A stretch of 24,000 bases of DNA from Glycomyces sp. NRRL B-16210 (GTDB lineage Bacteria; Actinomycetota; Actinomycetes; Mycobacteriales; Micromonosporaceae). The position numbers and the translations under genes are program-made. Shown piece after piece: positions 1-6,825 of this stretch (its first letter is position 1; each line of letters starts with the position of its first letter). Below the pieces are notes generated by a model that was not told where the DNA came from, did no database searches, and saw only the letters and a program-made list of their open reading frames with translations. The stretch lies in assembly GCF_000719515.1 (NCBI RefSeq), contig NZ_JOGR01000001.1, positions 16,773 through 40,772 on the forward strand, written 5' to 3'.

Positions 1-1753
1 GGGCGCGGGCGGCGTCGATGGGCAGGCCGGTGGTCATCTCGTCGCCGACGCCGAGGGCGCGTTCGGCGAGGCGCTGGAGTTCGGGCGGGGCGTCCATCGA
101 GTGCTCGTCGTAGTCGCGCTGCTGGCTGCGGATGAGGCGCAGGCGGTGGTCGAGGTCGCGGAAGGCCTCGCCGGGGCCGAGGATGTCGATGCGGCTGGAG
201 AGTTCGACCGGCCAGGGGCAGCGCTCGTGGAAGTGCAGCCACGGCTCGTGGCGCTGGGGGATCTCCAGTTCCTCCATGCGGCCGACGGTGAGGACGGCGG
301 TGTGCTTCTCCTCGCCGGTGAGGCGGTTGACGAGCTTGACGGTGGAGCCGTAGGGGCTGCGGTAGCGCTCGATGGACTCGGTGAGGGCGAGGACGTCGCC
401 GGCCTCCCAGTCGGCGCCCGAGCCCGAGAGCAGGCGCGGCGGTTCCATGCCGAGGGCGACCGAGCGGTAGACGAGCCATTCGAGTTCGGCGGTGGTGGCG
501 CGGTGGGCGCGGACGCCGAAGGAGCCGAGGACCTCGTCGAACTGGAGGCTGCGCTTCTCGATCTTCTCGCGTTCGGACAGGCGGGTGCCGCGGCCGACCA
601 TGCGGCCGAACTTCTCGCCGAGCTGGTCGAAGGCGCCCCGGCGCGAGAAGGTGATGCCGAGGAAGGTCTCGCCTTCGGCGTGGGAGAGCACCTGGAGGTG
701 GCGCTGGGCGGCGACGAGGTGGTCGGCCCAGCTGGTGCCGCCGGGGACGGTGCGCAGGGGGCGGGCGGTGTGGCGGTCGACGGTGCGGGCCCACTGGTCG
801 GCCGGGAAGGGCCGGGTGGTGCGCCGCAGGTGGACGCGCATCCCGGCGAGGCCGGCGAACTGCTCGGCAATGGCGACGATGAGCGCTTCGCGTTCGAGGT
901 CGGGCCGGAAGGACCAGCGCACGCCCGGCAGCACGTACCAGGCGGTGACCGAGGCGGGCGTGAAGGTCACGTGCCCGGCGATCTCGGTCAGGCTCAGCTC
1001 GCGCAGCGGCTGGCGTTCCTTCGGGGTCGGCAGCGGCTTGACGCGCGAGGGCTTCGCCTCGCCGGTCTCGACGAGCTGCTGGGCCTCGGCGCGGGCCTGT
1101 TTGACCGGGACGAGGTCCTGGCCGGGCACGCGCGTCGCGCCCTTCGACGCGGCTGCGCGGCGGCCCGTGGACGGGGCTCCGCCACCTGCGGCGGTGCTTC
1201 CGCGGCCCTGGTCAACAGCCTGTGGATAACTCTGCCCCGACTGTGGATAACTTCCGTTGTGTTGTGGATAACCCTGTGGATTATCGCTGGTCGGAGCCTG
1301 TGCGTAACGCTGTGGATATCCCTGTGGATAACTCGGCTGATTCTGTGGATAACTCTGGGGATAACCCTGTGGACGAGCGATGGACGGAGGGGTCATCGAC
1401 GCAGGTGGCGATGCGTGTCCCGCCGGGTCCACTGGGGAGGCCTGGGGGCGGGCGCCGCGCGGCGCGGTCGGGGGCGCGACCGGCTGGCCGCTCGACTGCC
1501 CGCTCGGCTGCCCGTTCGACTGCGGGGCGCTCGGCTGCCCGTTCGAGGGCGGCGCGGTCCGCTGGGCGGTCGGCGCGGCGGGGCGCCGCGGTTCGGACTG
1601 CGAGCGCGGCGGCTCGCCCCGGAAGACCGCGTCCGCGAGCGCGGTGGCGTCGTCGCCGAGGTCGCCGGTCTGCCGCTCGCGGTCCCGCACGGGTGCGGGC
1701 GGGCGCGGGGCGGAGAACTTGGCGACGGGCTGACGGCGATCCTCGCCGCTCAT
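1..1753 (-). CDS. Large protein, N-terminal ~584 codons only (runs off the left edge). Disordered Q/P/Y/G-rich N-terminus followed by a globular domain. Candidate VirB4-like or T4SS-locus protein (tentative).
   Basis: Own translation of the minus frame from ATG 1753-1751: MSGEDRRQPVAKFSAPRPP...PQGYPQSYPQNQPSYPQGYPQRYAQ...LSLTEIAGHVTFTPASVTAWYVLPGVRWSFRPDLEREALI...ALGVGDEMTTGLPIDAARA. The frame is open to position 1, so it is absent from the ORF track. ATGA start/stop overlap with the upstream 129-aa gene. No Walker A motif in the visible part, so the functional call rests on operon layout and my recollection of similar actinobacterial proteins. Confidence 0.7.
   Translation of the reverse strand, partial: MSGEDRRQPVAKFSAPRPPAPVRDRERQTGDLGDDATALADAVFRGEPPRSQSEPRRPAAPTAQRTAPPSNGQPSAPQSNGQPSGQSSGQPVAPPTAPRGARPQASPVDPAGHASPPASMTPPSIARPQGYPQSYPQNQPSYPQGYPQRYAQAPTSDNPQGYPQHNGSYPQSGQSYPQAVDQGRGSTAAGGGAPSTGRRAAASKGATRVPGQDLVPVKQARAEAQQLVETGEAKPSRVKPLPTPKERQPLRELSLTEIAGHVTFTPASVTAWYVLPGVRWSFRPDLEREALIVAIAEQFAGLAGMRVHLRRTTRPFPADQWARTVDRHTARPLRTVPGGTSWADHLVAAQRHLQVLSHAEGETFLGITFSRRGAFDQLGEKFGRMVGRGTRLSEREKIEKRSLQFDEVLGSFGVRAHRATTAELEWLVYRSVALGMEPPRLLSGSGADWEAGDVLALTESIERYRSPYGSTVKLVNRLTGEEKHTAVLTVGRMEELEIPQRHEPWLHFHERCPWPVELSSRIDILGPGEAFRDLDHRLRLIRSQQRDYDEHSMDAPPELQRLAERALGVGDEMTTGLPIDAARA
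1221..1376 (-). repeat. Cluster of DnaA-box-consensus 9-mers (TTATCCACA on the minus strand) embedded in the CDS: 5 exact and 4 near-exact copies, all in the same orientation.
   Basis: Exact TGTGGATAA on the plus strand at 1221-1229, 1242-1250, 1263-1271, 1323-1331 and 1344-1352. One-mismatch copies at 1275-1283, 1311-1319 and 1356-1364. Two-mismatch copy at 1368-1376. They correspond to (S/G)YPQ peptide repeats encoded as xGT TAT CCA CAG. Confidence 0.6.
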
Positions 1754-2139
1754 AGGCGCTCCTCAGTTCGGACGGGCTCCACGAGTGTGGGCCGCAAGCG
1801 GATCGAACGGGTCGTGAACGCCGGGATCCGCGTCTCGGTCCCCGCGTCGCGCGTGTGCTTCCAGTCGGTGAGCAGCGTGCGGACGACGGTGGTCGCGGGT
1901 CGGTCGGCGTCGACGTAGCGGAAGATCAGCGAGGTCGCGACGAGGGCGAGGGAGATCTCGATGGCGGGGAACAGGTCCACGTCGCCGGTGAAGGCCCAGC
2001 GCAGGAGCATGAACAGGGCCAGGAGCGCGGCGAAGGCGCCGTACTGCCCGTAGGGCAGGTGGACCGGCAGCGTGTATCCGGGAGGGCCCAGGTACAGAAG
2101 GCGGGCACGGTAGATGTCGTCATCGGTGCGCAAGCGCAT
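1750..2139 (-). CDS. Small membrane protein (129 aa, about 2 TM helices). VirB3/PrgI-like position in a T4SS-like operon (tentative).
   Basis: ORF track. Hydrophobic segments GAFAALLALFMLLRWAF and FPAIEISLALVATSLIF. Its TGA (1752-1750) overlaps the ATG (1753-1751) of the downstream large gene, suggesting translational coupling. Confidence 0.7.
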   Translation of the reverse strand: MRLRTDDDIYRARLLYLGPPGYTLPVHLPYGQYGAFAALLALFMLLRWAFTGDVDLFPAIEISLALVATSLIFRYVDADRPATTVVRTLLTDWKHTRDAGTETRIPAFTTRSIRLRPTLVEPVRTEERL

Positions 2140-2187
2140 GGGCGTCCTCCGTCCGGCCTGACTGCTCGGGGGCGATGTGGGGGCCTG

Positions 2188-2478
2188 CTAGTCCTCGGAG
2201 CTGAAGAGCACGTCGACCAGTCCGTTGCCGACGGCCACCAGGACCACGGCTCCGGCGATGAAGGCGATGCCGATGATGGCGATGGTCGATGAGGTGAGCA
2301 CGCGGCTGACCTCGCCCTTGTTGGCGCGGGCGATGAAGATGAGTCCGAGGATGGCCAGGAGGATCGGGGCGATTTTGGACAGGAAGAACCCGATGATCCC
2401 CGAGGTGTTGATCTCGGCGCCGGCCTGCGAGTGCGCGGCCACGGTCCAGAGTGTCTCTCTCAGCATCGTACGTTCCAT
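2188..2478 (-). CDS. Small 2-TM membrane protein (96 aa). VirB2/TrbC pilin-like candidate by size, topology and position (tentative).
   Basis: ORF track. Hydrophobic segments IIGFFLSKIAPILLAILGLIFIA and IAIIGIAFIAGAVVLVAV. It is the first gene of the minus-strand operon. The start is ATG 2478 or the in-frame ATG four codons downstream. Confidence 0.65.
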   Translation of the reverse strand: MERTMLRETLWTVAAHSQAGAEINTSGIIGFFLSKIAPILLAILGLIFIARANKGEVSRVLTSSTIAIIGIAFIAGAVVLVAVGNGLVDVLFSSED

Positions 2479-2645
2479 CCTCTCGTCACACGGGTCACTA
2501 CAACCTCACGTAACGCAATTTTCACTCATGTTTCTTGTCTCCCAACCCGATGCGGGTTCTGCCCCTCATCATATGCCGGGCCCCTGACGGAACGCACCTT
2601 CGTCGGCTCGAAGAGCGACCGCGCGGCCCGTCTGAAGCGGTGTTC

Positions 2646-2676
2646 CCTTCAGTGAAGGCGATATGCCCCTTGAAGG
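2646..2676. promoter_or_regulatory. Two adjacent palindromes sharing CCTT/AAGG half-sites, in the divergent intergenic region. Candidate operator.
   Basis: CCTTCAGTGAAGG at 2646-2658 and CCTTGAAGG at 2668-2676, separated by cgatatgcc. They lie in a lower-GC ~440-nt gap between the minus-strand operon (start 2478) and the plus-strand gene (start 2922). Confidence 0.35.
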
Positions 2677-2921
2677 CAATCCGATGAGCGCGATCACTCA
2701 TTGTCGGGAATCCGACACCCCTTCGAGCGGGCCGCGGCGGGCCTGGCTGGGATCTTGAGGTGAGGGTCCGTCGCGAATTCGGCGGAGGGGTCGGCGTCGA
2801 TCACCCTGCGTCGAGGCTCCGACACTAGGATGGCATTGCCAGGTGTCCTAGGCCCGGTGTCGGTCGCCATCGGCACAATGGACTTCGACCACATCGCCAT
2901 GCGCCATCCGCGGAGGTCCCA

Positions 2922-3797
2922 TTGGACGCAATCGACGACATCGCCGGGCGGCTCACCGTCGCCGCGATCGCCTTCGCCGTCGCCGGTCTCGCCCTCGCCG
3001 CGATCTCGGCCGCCGCCCTCGGCGGGGTGCGGGCCGCCGAGAAGTGGCCGTCGGCGCCCCTGCCGCGCGTCGGCCGCGGCGCCGTCATGACCGGCGCGCT
3101 CATCGGACTGGTCGCCTTCGCCCTCGCCGCCGGCCTGTTCTCCCTGGCCCGCATCGGCACCGGGCTCGACGCCAACCTGCGGGTCCTGCTCGCCGTCGGC
3201 ATCGACCTGGTCGCACTGGGCGTGGGCCTGTGGATGGTGAGCGCCGTGGCCGGGCGCGTGGAGATGCGCACCCTCATCGCGGTGCCCGACCACCCCGCGA
3301 CCCCGCCGCCGATCCCGGTCTCGGGGGACCCGACGCGCTACCAGATGCCCGACTACACCGAGACGCCCGTCGAGCCCGAGCCGCAGGACTACCCGCACCC
3401 CGGCTCCGAGCCGCGCGGATACGCCGCTCACCCCGGCTCCGAGCCGCAGGGGTACCCGCCGCGCGTCGCGCCCGAGCCCCGGCACCCCCTGCCGCCGTTC
3501 GCCCCCGACATCGCCGCGACCGGGCAGCAGCCGGCCGTGCGGTCCAAGGTGCCCACCATCCCGACCGACACCCGGCCCGGATGGGTCTTCCAGGACCGGG
3601 GGACCGGCGCGTTCTACGCGGCCGTCGCCCAGAGCCGGGGCGGCATCAGCCTGCTCGCCCTGGACGACTTCACCGTGGCGCGAACGGCTTCGCTCGTCGG
3701 CCCCCTGGAACTGGTCGGCTCCGTCGAGGCGACCGTGTGGCCGCTGGAGAACGGCGAGAACGGCGGTGCCGAGACCGGGGCCGAGCAGGAGGCCTGA
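2922..3797 (+). CDS. Membrane protein (291 aa): 3-4 N-terminal TM helices, a Pro-rich linker with HPGSEP(R/Q)GY repeats, and a C-terminal globular domain. Function unknown.
   Basis: ORF track. TTG start with GGAGG 6 nt upstream (2912-2916). TM-like segments LTVAAIAFAVAGLALAAISAAAL, VMTGALIGLVAFALAAGLF and VLLAVGIDLVALGVGLWMVSAV. Confidence 0.7.
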   Translation: MDAIDDIAGRLTVAAIAFAVAGLALAAISAAALGGVRAAEKWPSAPLPRVGRGAVMTGALIGLVAFALAAGLFSLARIGTGLDANLRVLLAVGIDLVALGVGLWMVSAVAGRVEMRTLIAVPDHPATPPPIPVSGDPTRYQMPDYTETPVEPEPQDYPHPGSEPRGYAAHPGSEPQGYPPRVAPEPRHPLPPFAPDIAATGQQPAVRSKVPTIPTDTRPGWVFQDRGTGAFYAAVAQSRGGISLLALDDFTVARTASLVGPLELVGSVEATVWPLENGENGGAETGAEQEA

Positions 3798-3913
3798 CCC
3801 TAGCCGGACGCGCCGGCGGCCCGGAGCCGTTGGCCTGGAAGAGGATCGAACCCGCGGCGGCTGCCTGCTAACCTGGTCCCGACACCACCGCCACGCCATT
3901 GGAGGTGCCACCG

Positions 3914-4261
3914 GTGTTCGGATTCGTCCAGGTGGAGAGCCAAGCCATTCGCAATGCGTCGCAGCAGATGCAGCAGTACGCCTCCCAGGCCGGGAGCCTC
4001 CCCGACAGCGCGGTGCAGGCCGCCGAACGCGCCGAGAGCGCCAACCGCGGCTTCATGTGCGCCGACGGCGCCAAGGACTTCGCCGACGACCTCAAGACCG
4101 ATATGCAAGAGCTCCAAGAACATCTGGACGACACCGCCGAGCTGTTGCAGGACATAGCCGACGACTGGGACGAGGCCGACGAGCACGGCGCGAGCGTGTT
4201 CAAGCCCATCGAGTCCGACCTCAGCGGATTCCGCGTCCCCACGATCCAAGGCGGGGTGTGA
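3914..4261 (+). CDS. Small helical protein S1 (~115 aa). EspC/PE-like partner of the downstream WXG protein; paralogous to 9494-9808 and 17539-17865(-).
   Basis: The ORF track gives 3899-4261. GTG 3914 sits 8 nt after GGAGG (3901-3905) and gives an N-terminus (MFGFVQVESQAIRNA) that aligns with MTWIDVDAEKLREA of S3. The C-terminal acidic motif IADDWDEADEHG resembles CADDMEAADEA (S2) and CADEHEGNDAA (S3). Confidence 0.7.
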   Translation: MFGFVQVESQAIRNASQQMQQYASQAGSLPDSAVQAAERAESANRGFMCADGAKDFADDLKTDMQELQEHLDDTAELLQDIADDWDEADEHGASVFKPIESDLSGFRVPTIQGGV

Positions 4262-4265
4262 CACC

Positions 4266-4796
4266 GTGCCCACCTTCCAGCAGTGCCTCGACGCCAACCC
4301 GACCGAGCTCATGACCCTCGGCGCCTCCATCGGATCGGCCGCCGCGCAGCTCACCCAGCTCGGCGCCTCCTACGGCACGACCGTCGCCGGCCTCGCCGCC
4401 TCCTGGCAGGGCGAGGACTACCAAGGACTCGTCCGATGGTCCGGCCAGGTCGCCGCCTTCATCGGCCGCAGCGACGCCGCGATGATCACCTGCGCCGGCG
4501 GACTCGGGACCACCGGCGCCGCCTTGATGGCCACCTGCACCGCCATGAAGGCCACCAAGCAGGCCGCCGAAGGCATCGGCTACAAGGTCCTGCCGACGCC
4601 GTTCGTGATCCTCGGCCCCAGCCAGTGGTCCCAGGTCTCCGCGGCCGGACCCGGCGCGCCCGCGGTCCTCGCCGCCTACCAGGCCGGAGCGGTCGCCTTC
4701 ACCACCGCCCTGGTCAGCATGTACACCGCGATCATCGCCCAGGACACGGCCGGGTACGCCGTCATCCGCACCGCCCTCGCCCTCAGCCCCTCCTGA
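4266..4796 (+). CDS. WXG-motif protein W1 (176 aa). Short member of the WXG100-like (T7SS-signal-type) family; candidate carrier or partner for the downstream toxins.
   Basis: GTG start 4 nt after the S1 stop. Contains ...LAASWQGEDYQGL... (W-x-G-x-D), preceded by the NPTELMTLGASIGSAAAQL helix that parallels NPGDLMKAAGAWMTLA in W2. Ala/Thr/Gly-rich hydrophobic C-terminal half. Confidence 0.7.
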   Translation: MPTFQQCLDANPTELMTLGASIGSAAAQLTQLGASYGTTVAGLAASWQGEDYQGLVRWSGQVAAFIGRSDAAMITCAGGLGTTGAALMATCTAMKATKQAAEGIGYKVLPTPFVILGPSQWSQVSAAGPGAPAVLAAYQAGAVAFTTALVSMYTAIIAQDTAGYAVIRTALALSPS

Positions 4797-4812
4797 CGGC
4801 CGGAGACGAGCG

Positions 4813-5388
4813 ATGCCGACGACCAACCACGGCGCCCTGCCACGAAGCGGCGAGCGCAGGCCGCAGAGCGCCAACCCGACCTCCGTCGCGGGCGCGTCCG
4901 ACTTCCGGCGCACCATCGGCAACCGCGTCCCCTACGGGCAGTCGCGCCTGGGGCAGCACGTCGCCGACATGCGCACGGTGCAGCCGACGAAGCCGCCGTC
5001 GATCGCGCCCACGGTGAAGAAGAACCTCGCCGCCGCCGAACTCAGCGACGGCACGATCATCGACGGCACCAGCGGCGGCGCACTGGGGTGCTCGGAGAAC
5101 GAGATCCAGTCGAAACTCGACGCGCTCAACCAGAGCCGGGCCCCAAGCGACCAGTTGACGATCAAGGAGCTCTACACCGAGCGTCAGCCGTGCTGCAAAT
5201 GCGAGAACCTCATGAAGACCAAGCATCCCGACGCGAAGGTCGACTGGTCCGTGGAATTCTTCGACACTCCGGACGCGCAGTCCCTCTCGCCCGAGCAGCT
5301 GACGGTCATGCGCTCGCTCAACAAGTTCGAACTCGGTGAACTCAAGCGGGTGAGCTATGCCTACCATGGGGTCCCGTTGCCGGGTTAG
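4813..5388 (+). CDS. Polymorphic-toxin-type nucleic-acid/nucleotide deaminase (CDA fold), with CxE in place of HxE (191 aa).
   Basis: GGAGA lies 6 nt upstream of ATG 4813. GCSENE and YTERQPCCKCE motifs are about 30 residues apart, matching zinc-site spacing. Clear paralogy to the 5808 ORF: AAAELSDGTIIDGTSGG vs AAAALGDGSVVTGRSRG, YTERQPCC, EFFDTP. Confidence 0.7.
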   Translation: MPTTNHGALPRSGERRPQSANPTSVAGASDFRRTIGNRVPYGQSRLGQHVADMRTVQPTKPPSIAPTVKKNLAAAELSDGTIIDGTSGGALGCSENEIQSKLDALNQSRAPSDQLTIKELYTERQPCCKCENLMKTKHPDAKVDWSVEFFDTPDAQSLSPEQLTVMRSLNKFELGELKRVSYAYHGVPLPG

Positions 5389-5430
5389 CACGCCCGGACG
5401 GGCACCCGACCGCGTGAGGAGGAACCGGCG

Positions 5431-5811
5431 TTGAGCCTAGAGGACGCGACGACCGCCGAGCTCGAACGAGTGGCCCGACTCGTCGCCGAGGCCCTGGAGC
5501 GGGCGGGCATCCCCTGGTCGCCCACCGAACAGCCCCTCGACCACGATGTGGCGCAAGTGATCGTGGACGACTCCGATGACGACGACCGGGGCGTGTTCGT
5601 CTCCTGGACGCTCTCGGTGCAGGAGAACTCCGCCATGCACGCGCTCGTCGTCGAAGGCGACCACGCGAACCCGGCGATCCTCCAGGCCGGGCGCCGGTTC
5701 GAGGAGGCCCTGGACCGCATCCAACGGGTGCTCCGCGGCGCGGGGATCGCCTCGGTCAACCCCGAGGACGACTTCGACCCCTACATGCTGAAGATCGTCA
5801 GCGCCCCGTGA
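5431..5811 (+). CDS. Candidate immunity protein for the upstream deaminase (126 aa, acidic).
   Basis: TTG start with GAGGAGGA 7 nt upstream. Sits immediately downstream of the toxin candidate. Homologous to the C-terminal half of the 5808 ORF (GVFVSWTLSV vs GVHVSWHVGA; RVLRGAGIASVNPEDDFDPYMLKI vs AVLDEAGIAAEPVTDGTAPYSLHL). Confidence 0.6.
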   Translation: MSLEDATTAELERVARLVAEALERAGIPWSPTEQPLDHDVAQVIVDDSDDDDRGVFVSWTLSVQENSAMHALVVEGDHANPAILQAGRRFEEALDRIQRVLRGAGIASVNPEDDFDPYMLKIVSAP

Positions 5812-6602
5812 GCTTCGGCCCCGACCTCCCCGGCATCGCGTTCGAACGGCGCCGCCGGGACTACCCCGGCGCCCCGAGCCCGATCGCCCGCAACTACGCC
5901 GCCGCCGCGCTCGGCGACGGCTCGGTCGTCACCGGGCGAAGCCGCGGGAGCCTCCTGCACGCCGAGATCGACGTGCTCCGCCAGGCCTCGGCCGTCGGGT
6001 CCCCCGTCGCGGCGATCTACACCGAGCGGCAGCCGTGCTGCGAGTGCGAGGCCGCCCTCGAAGCGGCCGGCGTCGCGCCCGACGCGATCACCTACTCCGC
6101 CGAGTTCTTCGACACGCCCGGCGAACCGACCGCCGAGGACGGCGCCGAACTGGCGCGGCTCAACCTCGGCGTGTTCGAGCACCTGCGGCAGATGATCCGC
6201 GAAGCCGAGGGCTCTCAACCACGCCCGGCCGGAGCGGACCCGGCCGCGGCGCTCGCGCGTTCGGTCGCGGGGCATATGGAACGGCACGGGCTGCGGGTCG
6301 CCGCAGAACCGGACCTCGGCGCCGAGCCCGGCGTCGAACTGGCCGTGGACGGCCTCGCCGACGGCGCGGGCGGCGTCCACGTCTCCTGGCACGTCGGCGC
6401 CGACCTCACCGCGCGCGTCCTCGACGCGGTGCACGGCGACCGGCTGGAGGACCCGGCGCTCACCGAAGCCGCCGCGATCAAGCAGCACCGGCTCGCCGGA
6501 CTCGCGGCGGTCCTCGACGAGGCGGGCATCGCCGCCGAACCGGTCACCGACGGCACCGCGCCCTACAGCCTCCACCTCCCCGTCCACACCGGTCCCCGGT
6601 GA
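5808..6602 (+). CDS. Deaminase domain (HAE...PCxxC) fused in-frame to an immunity-like domain (264 aa).
   Basis: GTG 5808 overlaps the TGA of the upstream gene (GTGA). LLHAEIDVL and IYTERQPCCECE motifs are present. Residues ~140-264 align with the free-standing 126-aa protein at 5431-5811. The ORF track shows a continuous ORF. Confidence 0.7.
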   Translation: MSFGPDLPGIAFERRRRDYPGAPSPIARNYAAAALGDGSVVTGRSRGSLLHAEIDVLRQASAVGSPVAAIYTERQPCCECEAALEAAGVAPDAITYSAEFFDTPGEPTAEDGAELARLNLGVFEHLRQMIREAEGSQPRPAGADPAAALARSVAGHMERHGLRVAAEPDLGAEPGVELAVDGLADGAGGVHVSWHVGADLTARVLDAVHGDRLEDPALTEAAAIKQHRLAGLAAVLDEAGIAAEPVTDGTAPYSLHLPVHTGPR

Positions 6603-6825
6603 AGCGCCCGCCGCGACTGGTTGCCGCGCATATATAGTCGCAACGACGAGTCATGTTCCCCCACCCCAGGAGCACTGATCCATGGCACCGATCCACACGC
6701 GACGGCAGGCACCCCGCGACGGTCGCGCCAGGACGCGGCAGCACCCGCCCGGCCCCGCCAGAGATGCAGCCGCCCGAGCCGCAGCCGCCCGCGCCGCGCT
6801 GGCCCTCTGAAGGTAAGGAGCAGCC

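Follow-up and report, generated by a model that had tools for sequence, protein, structure and literature searches.

A candidate non-origin DnaA-box array written in frame into a VirB4-like ATPase gene of Glycomyces

The stretch of Glycomyces sp. NRRL B-16210 DNA analyzed here (24,000 nt of contig NZ_JOGR01000001.1, hereafter the window; GC content 70%) opens within a minus-strand gene for a VirB4-like ATPase, and the part of this gene that encodes the disordered N-terminus of the protein carries ten 9-mers resembling DnaA boxes (Table 1). From start to start the ten follow one another at 12, 12, 21, 12, 12, 24, 12, 21 and 21 nt, with the 21-nt direct-repeat spacing of about two helical turns occurring at three steps, and the five exact copies of TTATCCACA are packed into 131 nt, measured between the outermost bases of the outer two. 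Three times, a weak box and a perfect box are separated by 3 bp (TTATCCCCA-gag-TTATCCACA, TTATCCACA-ggg-ATATCCACA and TAATCCACA-ggg-TTATCCACA). An earlier note, made by reading this DNA alone, had described five exact and four near-exact boxes on the minus strand at spacings of 12, 21 or 36 nt. The five exact boxes and the spacings are as it stated, the 36 nt dividing into 12 plus 24 once TTACGCACA is counted, while the near-exact boxes proved to be three with one mismatch and two with two. Allowing at most one mismatch, a scan of the 24-kb window found eight matches to TTATCCACA, all of them in the array and on the minus strand, and no further match anywhere else in the window. Dinucleotide shuffles gave a mean of 0.76 matches at this threshold, with eight or more reached in 0 of 100, and base composition predicts 0.022 exact boxes per 24 kb, or about 5 per 5.6-Mb genome. 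The GC content of 300-nt stretches around the array falls to a minimum of 0.64, a dip that is due to the boxes themselves.

Table 1. Features of the box array and its host operon (positions in the window)
Feature	Position	Strand	Remarks
Whole array, 10 DnaA-box-like 9-mers	1221-1376	minus	single orientation, in frame (xxT TAT CCA CAx), 156 nt
Imperfect box TCGTCCACA (unit 1)	1368-1376	minus	2 mismatches to TTATCCACA; 8/9 to the actinomycete consensus TTGTCCACA
Imperfect box TTATCCCCA	1356-1364	minus	1 mismatch
Perfect box TTATCCACA	1344-1352	minus	3' half of double box TTATCCCCA-gag-TTATCCACA
Perfect box TTATCCACA	1323-1331	minus	21 nt past the 1344-1352 box; variable weak box 12 nt on
Imperfect box ATATCCACA	1311-1319	minus	1 mismatch
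Imperfect box TTACGCACA	1299-1307	minus	2 mismatches; TTACCCACA in other Glycomyces
Imperfect box TAATCCACA	1275-1283	minus	1 mismatch; AATCCACA conserved, first base variable
Perfect box TTATCCACA	1263-1271	minus	3' half of double box TAATCCACA-ggg-TTATCCACA
Perfect box TTATCCACA	1242-1250	minus	21-nt spacing; aligned box of Stackebrandtia albiflava also perfect
Perfect box TTATCCACA, final one of array	1221-1229	minus	21-nt spacing; aligned S. albiflava box also perfect
GACACGC and CCACCTGCG	1413-1419 and 1400-1408	minus	rare-codon stretch upstream of the array, conserved
GCT GTT GAC CAG (GCTGTTGACCAG)	1209-1220	minus	directly past the last box; rare codons; invariant in the window and 7 Glycomyces
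Host gene, VirB4-like ATPase	2-1741	minus	starts at 1741 (MSGEDRRQPVAKF...), exits the window at its left end
Two small membrane-protein genes	2188-2478 and 1750-2139	minus	directly upstream of the ATPase gene

The reading frame of the boxes yields (S/G)YPQ at about residues 122-174 of the host protein, and it does so in codons that are otherwise rare in this genome region. Tyrosine is written TAT in 7 of 8 cases inside the array, as against TAC for all five remaining Tyr codons of the gene, in agreement with the rare-codon usage that the earlier note had pointed out. Outside the array, the 25 open reading frames (ORFs) of the window use TAT in 6 of 137 cases, CCA in 10 of 384, AGT in 2 of 348 and GGT in 61 of 655. 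Codons ending in A or T make up 61% of the array compared with 8% outside it in these ORFs, the array being the sole part of the gene rich in such codons, and 9 of the 10 other Tyr-Pro dipeptides in the window ORFs are written TAC CCS. Tandem Repeats Finder reports just a degenerate 12-nt period with 61% matches across the array, so that the units do not share identical flanks and no block of identical units exists. Two other sequences lie nearby: a second, unrelated coding repeat in the same N-terminus (1469-1564, minus strand; 27-nt period, about 3.7 copies, SNGQPSAPQ-like) uses normal GC-rich codons and is absent from the other Glycomyces orthologues, and the neighboring gene at 2922-3797 has GYP/DYP motifs in normal codons (TAC CCG).

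The array was compared with the corresponding DNA of a genome reached via the closest database protein (L001, GCA_054775695.1) and of genomes reached via a scan at one genome per species, namely seven named Glycomyces species (L002-L008) and Stackebrandtia albiflava (L009). Codon-level tests were carried out on the window and the seven Glycomyces genomes L002-L008; L001 was left out because its gene is frameshifted in the assembly. The L001 locus lies at 0.72-0.74 Mb on a 5.58-Mb contig, and its VirB4-like gene (locus 9366-12483) appears as three overlapping calls with frameshifts at about 10000 and 11850, which are probably sequencing errors rather than signs of a pseudogene. Exactly five perfect coding-strand boxes are found in the same gene region of the window, of L001-L008 and of S. 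albiflava, at spacings of 21/60/21/21 nt in Glycomyces and 66/21/21/45 nt in S. albiflava. Within Glycomyces the boxes hold the same positions while the spacers and the remaining N-terminus diverge. In the DNA alignment the GTTATCCACA blocks are invariant, and the 9-nt spacers differ between genomes (aatcagccg/gaacggtcg/aatccgggg and cacaacgga/caaccacag/gacggcgga).

The earlier note had proposed that the nucleotide sequence, and not the peptide alone, is constrained, and the codon-level tests bear this out. None of the 45 positions in the perfect boxes varies, compared with 26 of 111 elsewhere in the array (Fisher p = 8e-5), and Fitch reconstruction on a tree built by the unweighted pair group method with arithmetic mean places 0 changes at the 45 box positions and 48 at the other array positions. 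The 15 third-codon positions of the boxes have undergone 0 changes, where the third-position rate of the whole gene predicts 10.3 (Poisson P = 3e-5). All 15 are invariant, whereas other A/T-ending codons at invariant residues are themselves invariant in 14 of 35 cases. Along the gene, third-position invariance peaks at 0.90-0.95 over the array and drops to 0-0.45 in the adjoining parts of the N-terminus. Tyr is preceded by Ser, Gly or Ala in a codon that always ends in T, as at the 1263-1271 box, where this residue is Gly or Ala (GGT/GCT), whereas the third base of the Gln codon, one position outside the box, varies between G and A. The constraint thus tracks the 9-mer and not the peptide.

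Several of the imperfect boxes are conserved as well. TCGTCCACA is invariant in the window and the seven Glycomyces, where the residue that contributes its first T is Ala, Val, Ser or Gly; this residue is always encoded by NNT, which preserves the 9-mer. In the same genomes TTATCCCCA is kept despite a Gly/Ala change right before it, and the 1344-1352 box that it precedes is invariant in these genomes and in L001. An imperfect partner lies exactly 12 nt upstream of the first perfect box in 10 of 10 genomes, although its sequence varies by lineage (TTATCCCCA, TTCTCCACA or ATATCCACA). By contrast, the ATATCCACA unit at 1311-1319 evolves freely (TAT CCA, CAA or GCA). Beyond the boxes, the upstream stretch GACACGC...CCACCTGCG is invariant or nearly so across all Glycomyces, with CACCTGCG shared by S. 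albiflava too, and an additional weak box, GTTTCCACA, lies about 25 nt downstream of GCTGTTGACCAG in L001 and L003-L008.

More distant comparisons give the same picture. L001 differs by 12% in the DNA of the conserved domain, and its N-terminus upstream of the array is mostly unalignable, yet the five boxes are kept. In S. albiflava, with a conserved domain 27% diverged, perfect boxes stand at three aligned positions and two more elsewhere, so that the count of five is maintained. The orthologue comparison called for by the earlier note therefore came out in favor of its idea: eight Glycomyces loci and S. albiflava keep TTATCCACA, and in no orthologue examined is YPQ retained with common codons such as TAC/CCG. 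The simple-duplication alternative that it had raised fared less well, since the unit flanks are non-identical and diverge between species while the boxes stay fixed; a recent simple tandem coding repeat was rejected on these grounds and on the 61% matches. The relatives that lack boxes, which comprise Phytomonospora (two loci), S. soli, Ca. S. faecavium and 119 other homologues (mostly Micromonosporaceae), also have no YPQ peptide, S. soli and Ca. S. faecavium being only partly sequenced upstream. A protein-database search with the N-terminal 291 amino acids (aa) returned no further YPQ-region orthologues at E <=0.001, and the distribution of the array is narrow, covering Glycomyces and one Stackebrandtia. 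Overall, the comparisons show that purifying selection acts on the boxes as DNA.

What the conserved 9-mer might bind is suggested by published work on DnaA. TTATCCACA is the highest-affinity box in Escherichia coli and Bacillus subtilis (PMC4285127). Chromatin immunoprecipitation sequencing in E. coli finds DnaA in vivo chiefly at box pairs 2-3 bp apart, typically running from weak to perfect, with examples of the form ...CAgagTTATCCACAg at oriC, datA and purH, and with 13 of 32 perfect single boxes bound genome-wide (PMC11317965). Mycobacterium tuberculosis DnaA does not bind a single box and Streptomyces coelicolor DnaA binds one weakly, so that both need box clusters (PMC4285127), and the stable DnaA sites of B. 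subtilis are clusters with at most 3 perfect boxes (PMC2533591). A literature search found no paper describing the Glycomyces array.

Arrays of at least three TTATCCACA at exact 21-nt spacing are very common in metagenomes, where our scan for three such copies returned at least 120 loci (L014-L133; GC 0.17-0.63 among the matches listed). In 92 distinct arrays among the matches listed, the flanking bases are A(-2) in 213 of 276 units, G(-1) in 184 of 276 and G(+10) in 144 of 276, and extra boxes beside the three lie at 12 nt (34), 21 nt (22), 11 nt (9) and rarely otherwise. The fetched DNA of 26 of the 120 loci listed contains dnaA and/or dnaN, mostly directly beside the array, and in L079 the two genes flank the array on either side (Pfam). 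The Glycomyces units follow the same pattern, (A/G)G-TTATCCACA-G at 12/21 nt, with G(-1) in 49 of 50 and G(+10) in 45 of 50, and in unit and spacing they match non-coding arrays adjoining dnaA/dnaN in unrelated bacteria. These comparisons show that the array has the 9-mer, the flanks and the spacing of genuine DnaA arrays. The DnaA-box identity put forward in the earlier note is strengthened by the flanks, by the 12/21-nt spacing found beside dnaA/dnaN and by agreement with the double-box rule of E. coli (PMC11317965).

Some of the metagenomic contigs, one of them phage-like, carry their repeats in coding sequence. An in-frame GYPQQPP tandem repeat in L061 (298-348; GC 0.28) and an in-frame GNVVYPQ tandem repeat in L111 (1271-1321; GC 0.17) each yield a TTATCCACA array at 21-nt spacing, which shows that AT-rich genomes with TAT CCA CAA as normal codons can form such arrays by chance. 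A 70% GC genome with 8% A/T-ending codons cannot form them from ordinary codons. The phage-like metagenomic contig L017 has, at 6413-6475, three perfect 21-bp repeats GGGGTAGAAAAGTTATCCACA containing AGTTATCCACA, which sit in the inter-domain part of a replication-initiator gene (phrog_270; ORF 6007-7371, minus strand); by its layout it reads as a lambda ori/gene O-like design with a DnaA box inside the iterons.

The protein that hosts the array in Glycomyces has a disordered, hypervariable, Pro/Gln-rich N-terminus of about 230 residues, whose repeats differ from lineage to lineage. The body behind it is highly conserved, with about 70% identity between families. The truncated protein of the window has no Pfam or NCBIfam match, and no sequence match to the ATPase body was found in the PDB. 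Complete Glycomyces orthologues (1039-1100 aa) match AAA_10 (PF12846) at 3e-21, and the homologues are 850-1010-residue 'ATP-binding proteins' with PF12846 from Micromonosporaceae, Stackebrandtia and related actinomycetes. Plasmids of Streptomyces, Rhodococcus, Nonomuraea and Pseudonocardia carry homologues that share 32-37% identity across 95% of the length, and further matches occur on Enterococcus, Bacillus and Clostridium plasmids; at the nucleotide level, a Megablast search of window positions 1-6000 against plasmids gave no match. We therefore assign the host protein as a VirB4-like ATPase of the Gram-positive conjugation type, because AAA_10 is found in its full-length orthologues and its homologues are on Gram-positive plasmids.

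Together with the two small membrane-protein genes upstream, the ATPase gene probably forms one operon with its promoter in the 2479-2921 gap. The two upstream genes are arranged likewise in L002, L004 and L009, and the ATPase gene of the relatives is followed by genes for a 642-649-aa protein and an M23 peptidase. AAA_10, the 32-37% identical Gram-positive plasmid genes and the downstream M23 peptidase are what suggest the label 'type IV secretion system-like' for this locus. No internal promoter or terminator was found near the array, the lone terminator-like match (2389-2404) lying within an upstream gene, and a TTGACC just past the last box has no -10 partner on reading of the sequence. 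Neither a relaxase nor an integrase was seen by Pfam among most predicted genes of the window or in the locus DNA of the relatives, and the same Pfam search of the window genes found no Rep, dnaA or dnaN.

Next to the VirB4-like operon, the window contains cargo genes of the type associated with type VII secretion systems (EspC-like PF10824, WXG100 and PPE-like) together with YbaB-like proteins. These cargo/toxin regions occupy 3899-5388, 9467-12443 and 17539-18042, as well as 7938-8684 and 12940-13299, and include an XOO_2897-like deaminase toxin at 4813-5388. They look like polymorphic-toxin cassettes, and the one at about 3.9-7.9 kb is seemingly missing from the G. paridis locus L002.

On balance, the segment is in our view probably a functional non-origin DnaA-box array, placed in frame in a dispensable, disordered linker of the VirB4-like ATPase gene, and this stretch of the gene very probably doubles as a DNA docking site. 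Chromosomal DnaA would bind the array cooperatively: assembly would start at the three pairs in which 3 bp separate a weak from a perfect box, and would spread along the perfect boxes at 21 bp, or two helical turns, into a complex of some 8-10 protomers. The most likely role, by analogy with datA, the B. subtilis clusters and the S. coelicolor cluster D78, is to damp re-initiation as a site on the chromosome where DnaA is held or processed. Since the gene around the array is transcribed, transcription of the operon and occupancy by DnaA should work against one another, with RNA polymerase stripping DnaA off the array and bound DnaA impeding RNA polymerase, so that coupling in either direction is possible. 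The YPQ peptide would then be mostly a side effect of the DNA motif, which the protein can afford since it is under no constraint in this part. Slippage in a linker prone to repeats and free of constraint is probably how the array grew, which would explain its location in the gene. A further step, which we hold only tentatively and think improbable, is that the array serves as a two-way coupling device between chromosome replication and the conjugation-type secretion machine. High free DnaA would fill the array and choke transcription of the ATPase operon, an operon switched on would have its RNA polymerase clear DnaA from the array and release a pulse of initiator, and the YPQ repeat would be present solely since the DNA had to hold DnaA boxes.

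Several points weigh against a DnaA sink. The present evidence fits titration and transcriptional coupling alike. The main caveat concerns box preference: in the actinomycetes studied so far the 'perfect' box is TT(G/C)TCCACA rather than TTATCCACA (PMC4285127), a preference that Glycomyces DnaA may share, and although TCT (Ser) would suit the reading frame, the conserved boxes all have A at position 3. The Glycomyces genomes are just 3-10% diverged in the conserved domain, so that the depth of the conservation tests rests on nine related species and one distant one. Finally, the E. coli and B. subtilis clusters compared here are non-coding (intergenic in B. subtilis), whereas the Glycomyces array is coding, in frame and dictates a peptide.

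Among the alternatives, a local role for a DnaA-bound array, as a roadblock or attenuator inside the operon that would make expression of the ATPase and of the genes behind it (those for the 642-649-aa protein and the M23 peptidase) follow replication or growth state, seems doubtful to us. All of the evidence for predicted DnaA binding applies equally to it, the boxes all face the direction of transcription, and the array has stayed in one gene since before the Glycomyces/S. albiflava split, with the S. albiflava boxes reshuffled and yet still five in this region of the gene. Proteins bound to DNA are able to block RNA polymerase (PMC13584721), and DnaA is known as a transcription factor (PMC11317965; PMC2533591). 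Regulators, however, mostly act at promoters, and the array lies about 1.1-1.25 kb into the transcription unit with no promoter-like site near it; a roadblock inside an ORF is also costly. Moreover, the operons of Phytomonospora, of two other Stackebrandtia loci and of the other homologues contain no YPQ-encoding array, and no box cluster is present in the sequenced flanks of L010-L013; since relatives' operons do without the array, DnaA control is no general need of the system. We regard it as unlikely that the 9-12-mer is read by something other than DnaA, either another DNA-binding protein (of the type IV secretion system-like locus, for example) or a factor that reads GUUAUCCACAG in the mRNA. 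That selection acts on the nucleotides does not by itself identify what reads the sequence, the copies are all on the mRNA-sense strand, and the DnaA proteins of studied actinomycetes prefer G/C at box position 3. The near fixation of G(-1) (49/50) and G(+10) (45/50) means that the recognized unit could exceed 9 nt. The invariant core is nevertheless exactly the universal high-affinity DnaA box, and its flanks and 12/21 spacing recur beside dnaA/dnaN in unrelated phyla, which an element-specific protein fails to explain; another DNA-binding protein is thus not the parsimonious choice. For an RNA-level reader, there is no Rfam match (E up to 1) and the segment folds no better than shuffles (z = 0.24). 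Repeats of PhoP, MtrA and other response regulators, which need 11-nt phasing and a different core, were also considered and rejected.

It is very unlikely, in our view, that the array lacks any DNA-level function and is either a duplicated 12-nt (S/G)YPQ unit or a rare-codon translation-pausing signal whose match to the DnaA box is coincidental. Lineage-specific peptide repeats do abound in the N-termini of this family, coding repeats of the plain GYPQ type do give rise to TTATCCACA arrays in AT-rich genomes (L061 and L111), and every kept codon is rare, as a pausing model predicts. That model, however, predicts no particular rare codon per site, and duplication sits poorly with flanks that are not common to the units (61% matches) and with boxes that stay fixed while spacers and adjacent residues change. 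We put the probability that a repeated, conserved 9-mer happens to be a top-affinity box at about 1e-5 (2 of 262,144 9-mers), and the flanks and spacing of real DnaA arrays would also have to be copied. Direct repeats at 21-bp (two-turn) spacing are typical of iteron origins, and the array has this spacing, which would fit the replication origin of an integrated conjugative element or former plasmid placed inside a gene as in phage lambda. The ATPase has homologues on Gram-positive plasmids, and L017 offers DnaA-box-bearing 21-bp repeats in the linker of a phage replication-initiator gene. This reading is nonetheless hardly credible and was rejected: there is no AT-rich unwinding region (GC >=0.64 in any 300-nt stretch around the array), the host gene encodes an AAA_10 ATPase and not an initiator, and Pfam finds no Rep, relaxase or integrase gene among most predicted genes of the window. 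Vertical inheritance is also suggested by a gene tree that roughly matches taxonomy and by synteny between the species.

Non-origin DnaA-box clusters are a main bacterial means of limiting replication to once per cycle, and to our knowledge they are described from few model species. What we report here is apparently a high-affinity DnaA-box array that is hidden inside a gene, in a little-studied actinomycete family, and kept by selection on synonymous sites. It represents a clean natural case of overlapping codes, in which a peptide is set by a putative DNA-binding array and regulatory DNA finds cheap room in the linker of a disordered protein segment. Synonymous recoding could remove the boxes with the protein unchanged, giving actinomycetes a handle on transcriptional coupling or titration. 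Such sites will escape origin finders and scans for the DnaA regulon if these skip coding sequence. If the link to the operon is functional, replication control would be connected to DNA transfer, and under the coupling reading, if true, part of a protein would owe its sequence to a regulatory DNA array.

The closest known counterparts of the array are datA, the B. subtilis DnaA-box clusters (DBCs) and S. coelicolor D78, which are likewise dense clusters of consensus boxes away from oriC. Such non-origin clusters are believed to restrain initiation by holding or inactivating DnaA, and stable DnaA binding in them takes several boxes (PMC2533591; PMC4585315; for D78, Smulczyk-Krawczyszyn 2006, cited in PMC2533591). 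Extra copies of D78 are reported to slow initiation. The datA unit ...CAgagTTATCCACAg is the same as in the array, and the array has 5 perfect boxes where any B. subtilis cluster listed has at most 3; an IHF-type partner site is not known for it. Of the features that mark these clusters, closely spaced consensus boxes and conservation of the DNA among related species are both present in Glycomyces, and the location differs in being coding. The arrays that flank oriC or dnaA share with it the 9-mer, the AG...G flanks, the single orientation within a run and the 12/21-nt spacing. Unlike them, the Glycomyces array is inside an ORF, has no AT-rich unwinding element (lowest GC 0.64 in 300-nt windows) and has neither dnaA nor dnaN among the window genes scanned with Pfam (most predicted genes). 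Usually, though not universally, oriC adjoins dnaA/dnaN.

The origin of phage lambda consists of protein-binding direct repeats at roughly two-turn spacing in the linker-coding part of gene O. Both lambda ori/gene O and L017 resemble the Glycomyces array in having binding repeats in a linker-coding segment, so that a DNA function overlaps with coding. They differ in that their host gene is the initiator itself with an AT-rich region adjoining, whereas the array, with its bare DnaA boxes, sits in a gene for a VirB4-like ATPase. The pairing of a weak and a perfect box that is typical of DnaA-regulated double boxes (E. coli nrdA, mioC, purH and dnaA; B. subtilis sda and ywlC) occurs three times in the array; the regulated sites are intergenic in B. 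subtilis and mostly just upstream of genes in E. coli, whereas the array is well inside its gene. At the protein level, the Pro/Gln/Tyr-rich low-complexity repeats of actinobacteria are of a similar peptide type and are likewise found in a disordered terminus. The GYP/DYP motifs of the gene at 2922-3797 use the normal codons of the genome (TAC CCG), whereas the rare codons of the Glycomyces array are fixed across species.

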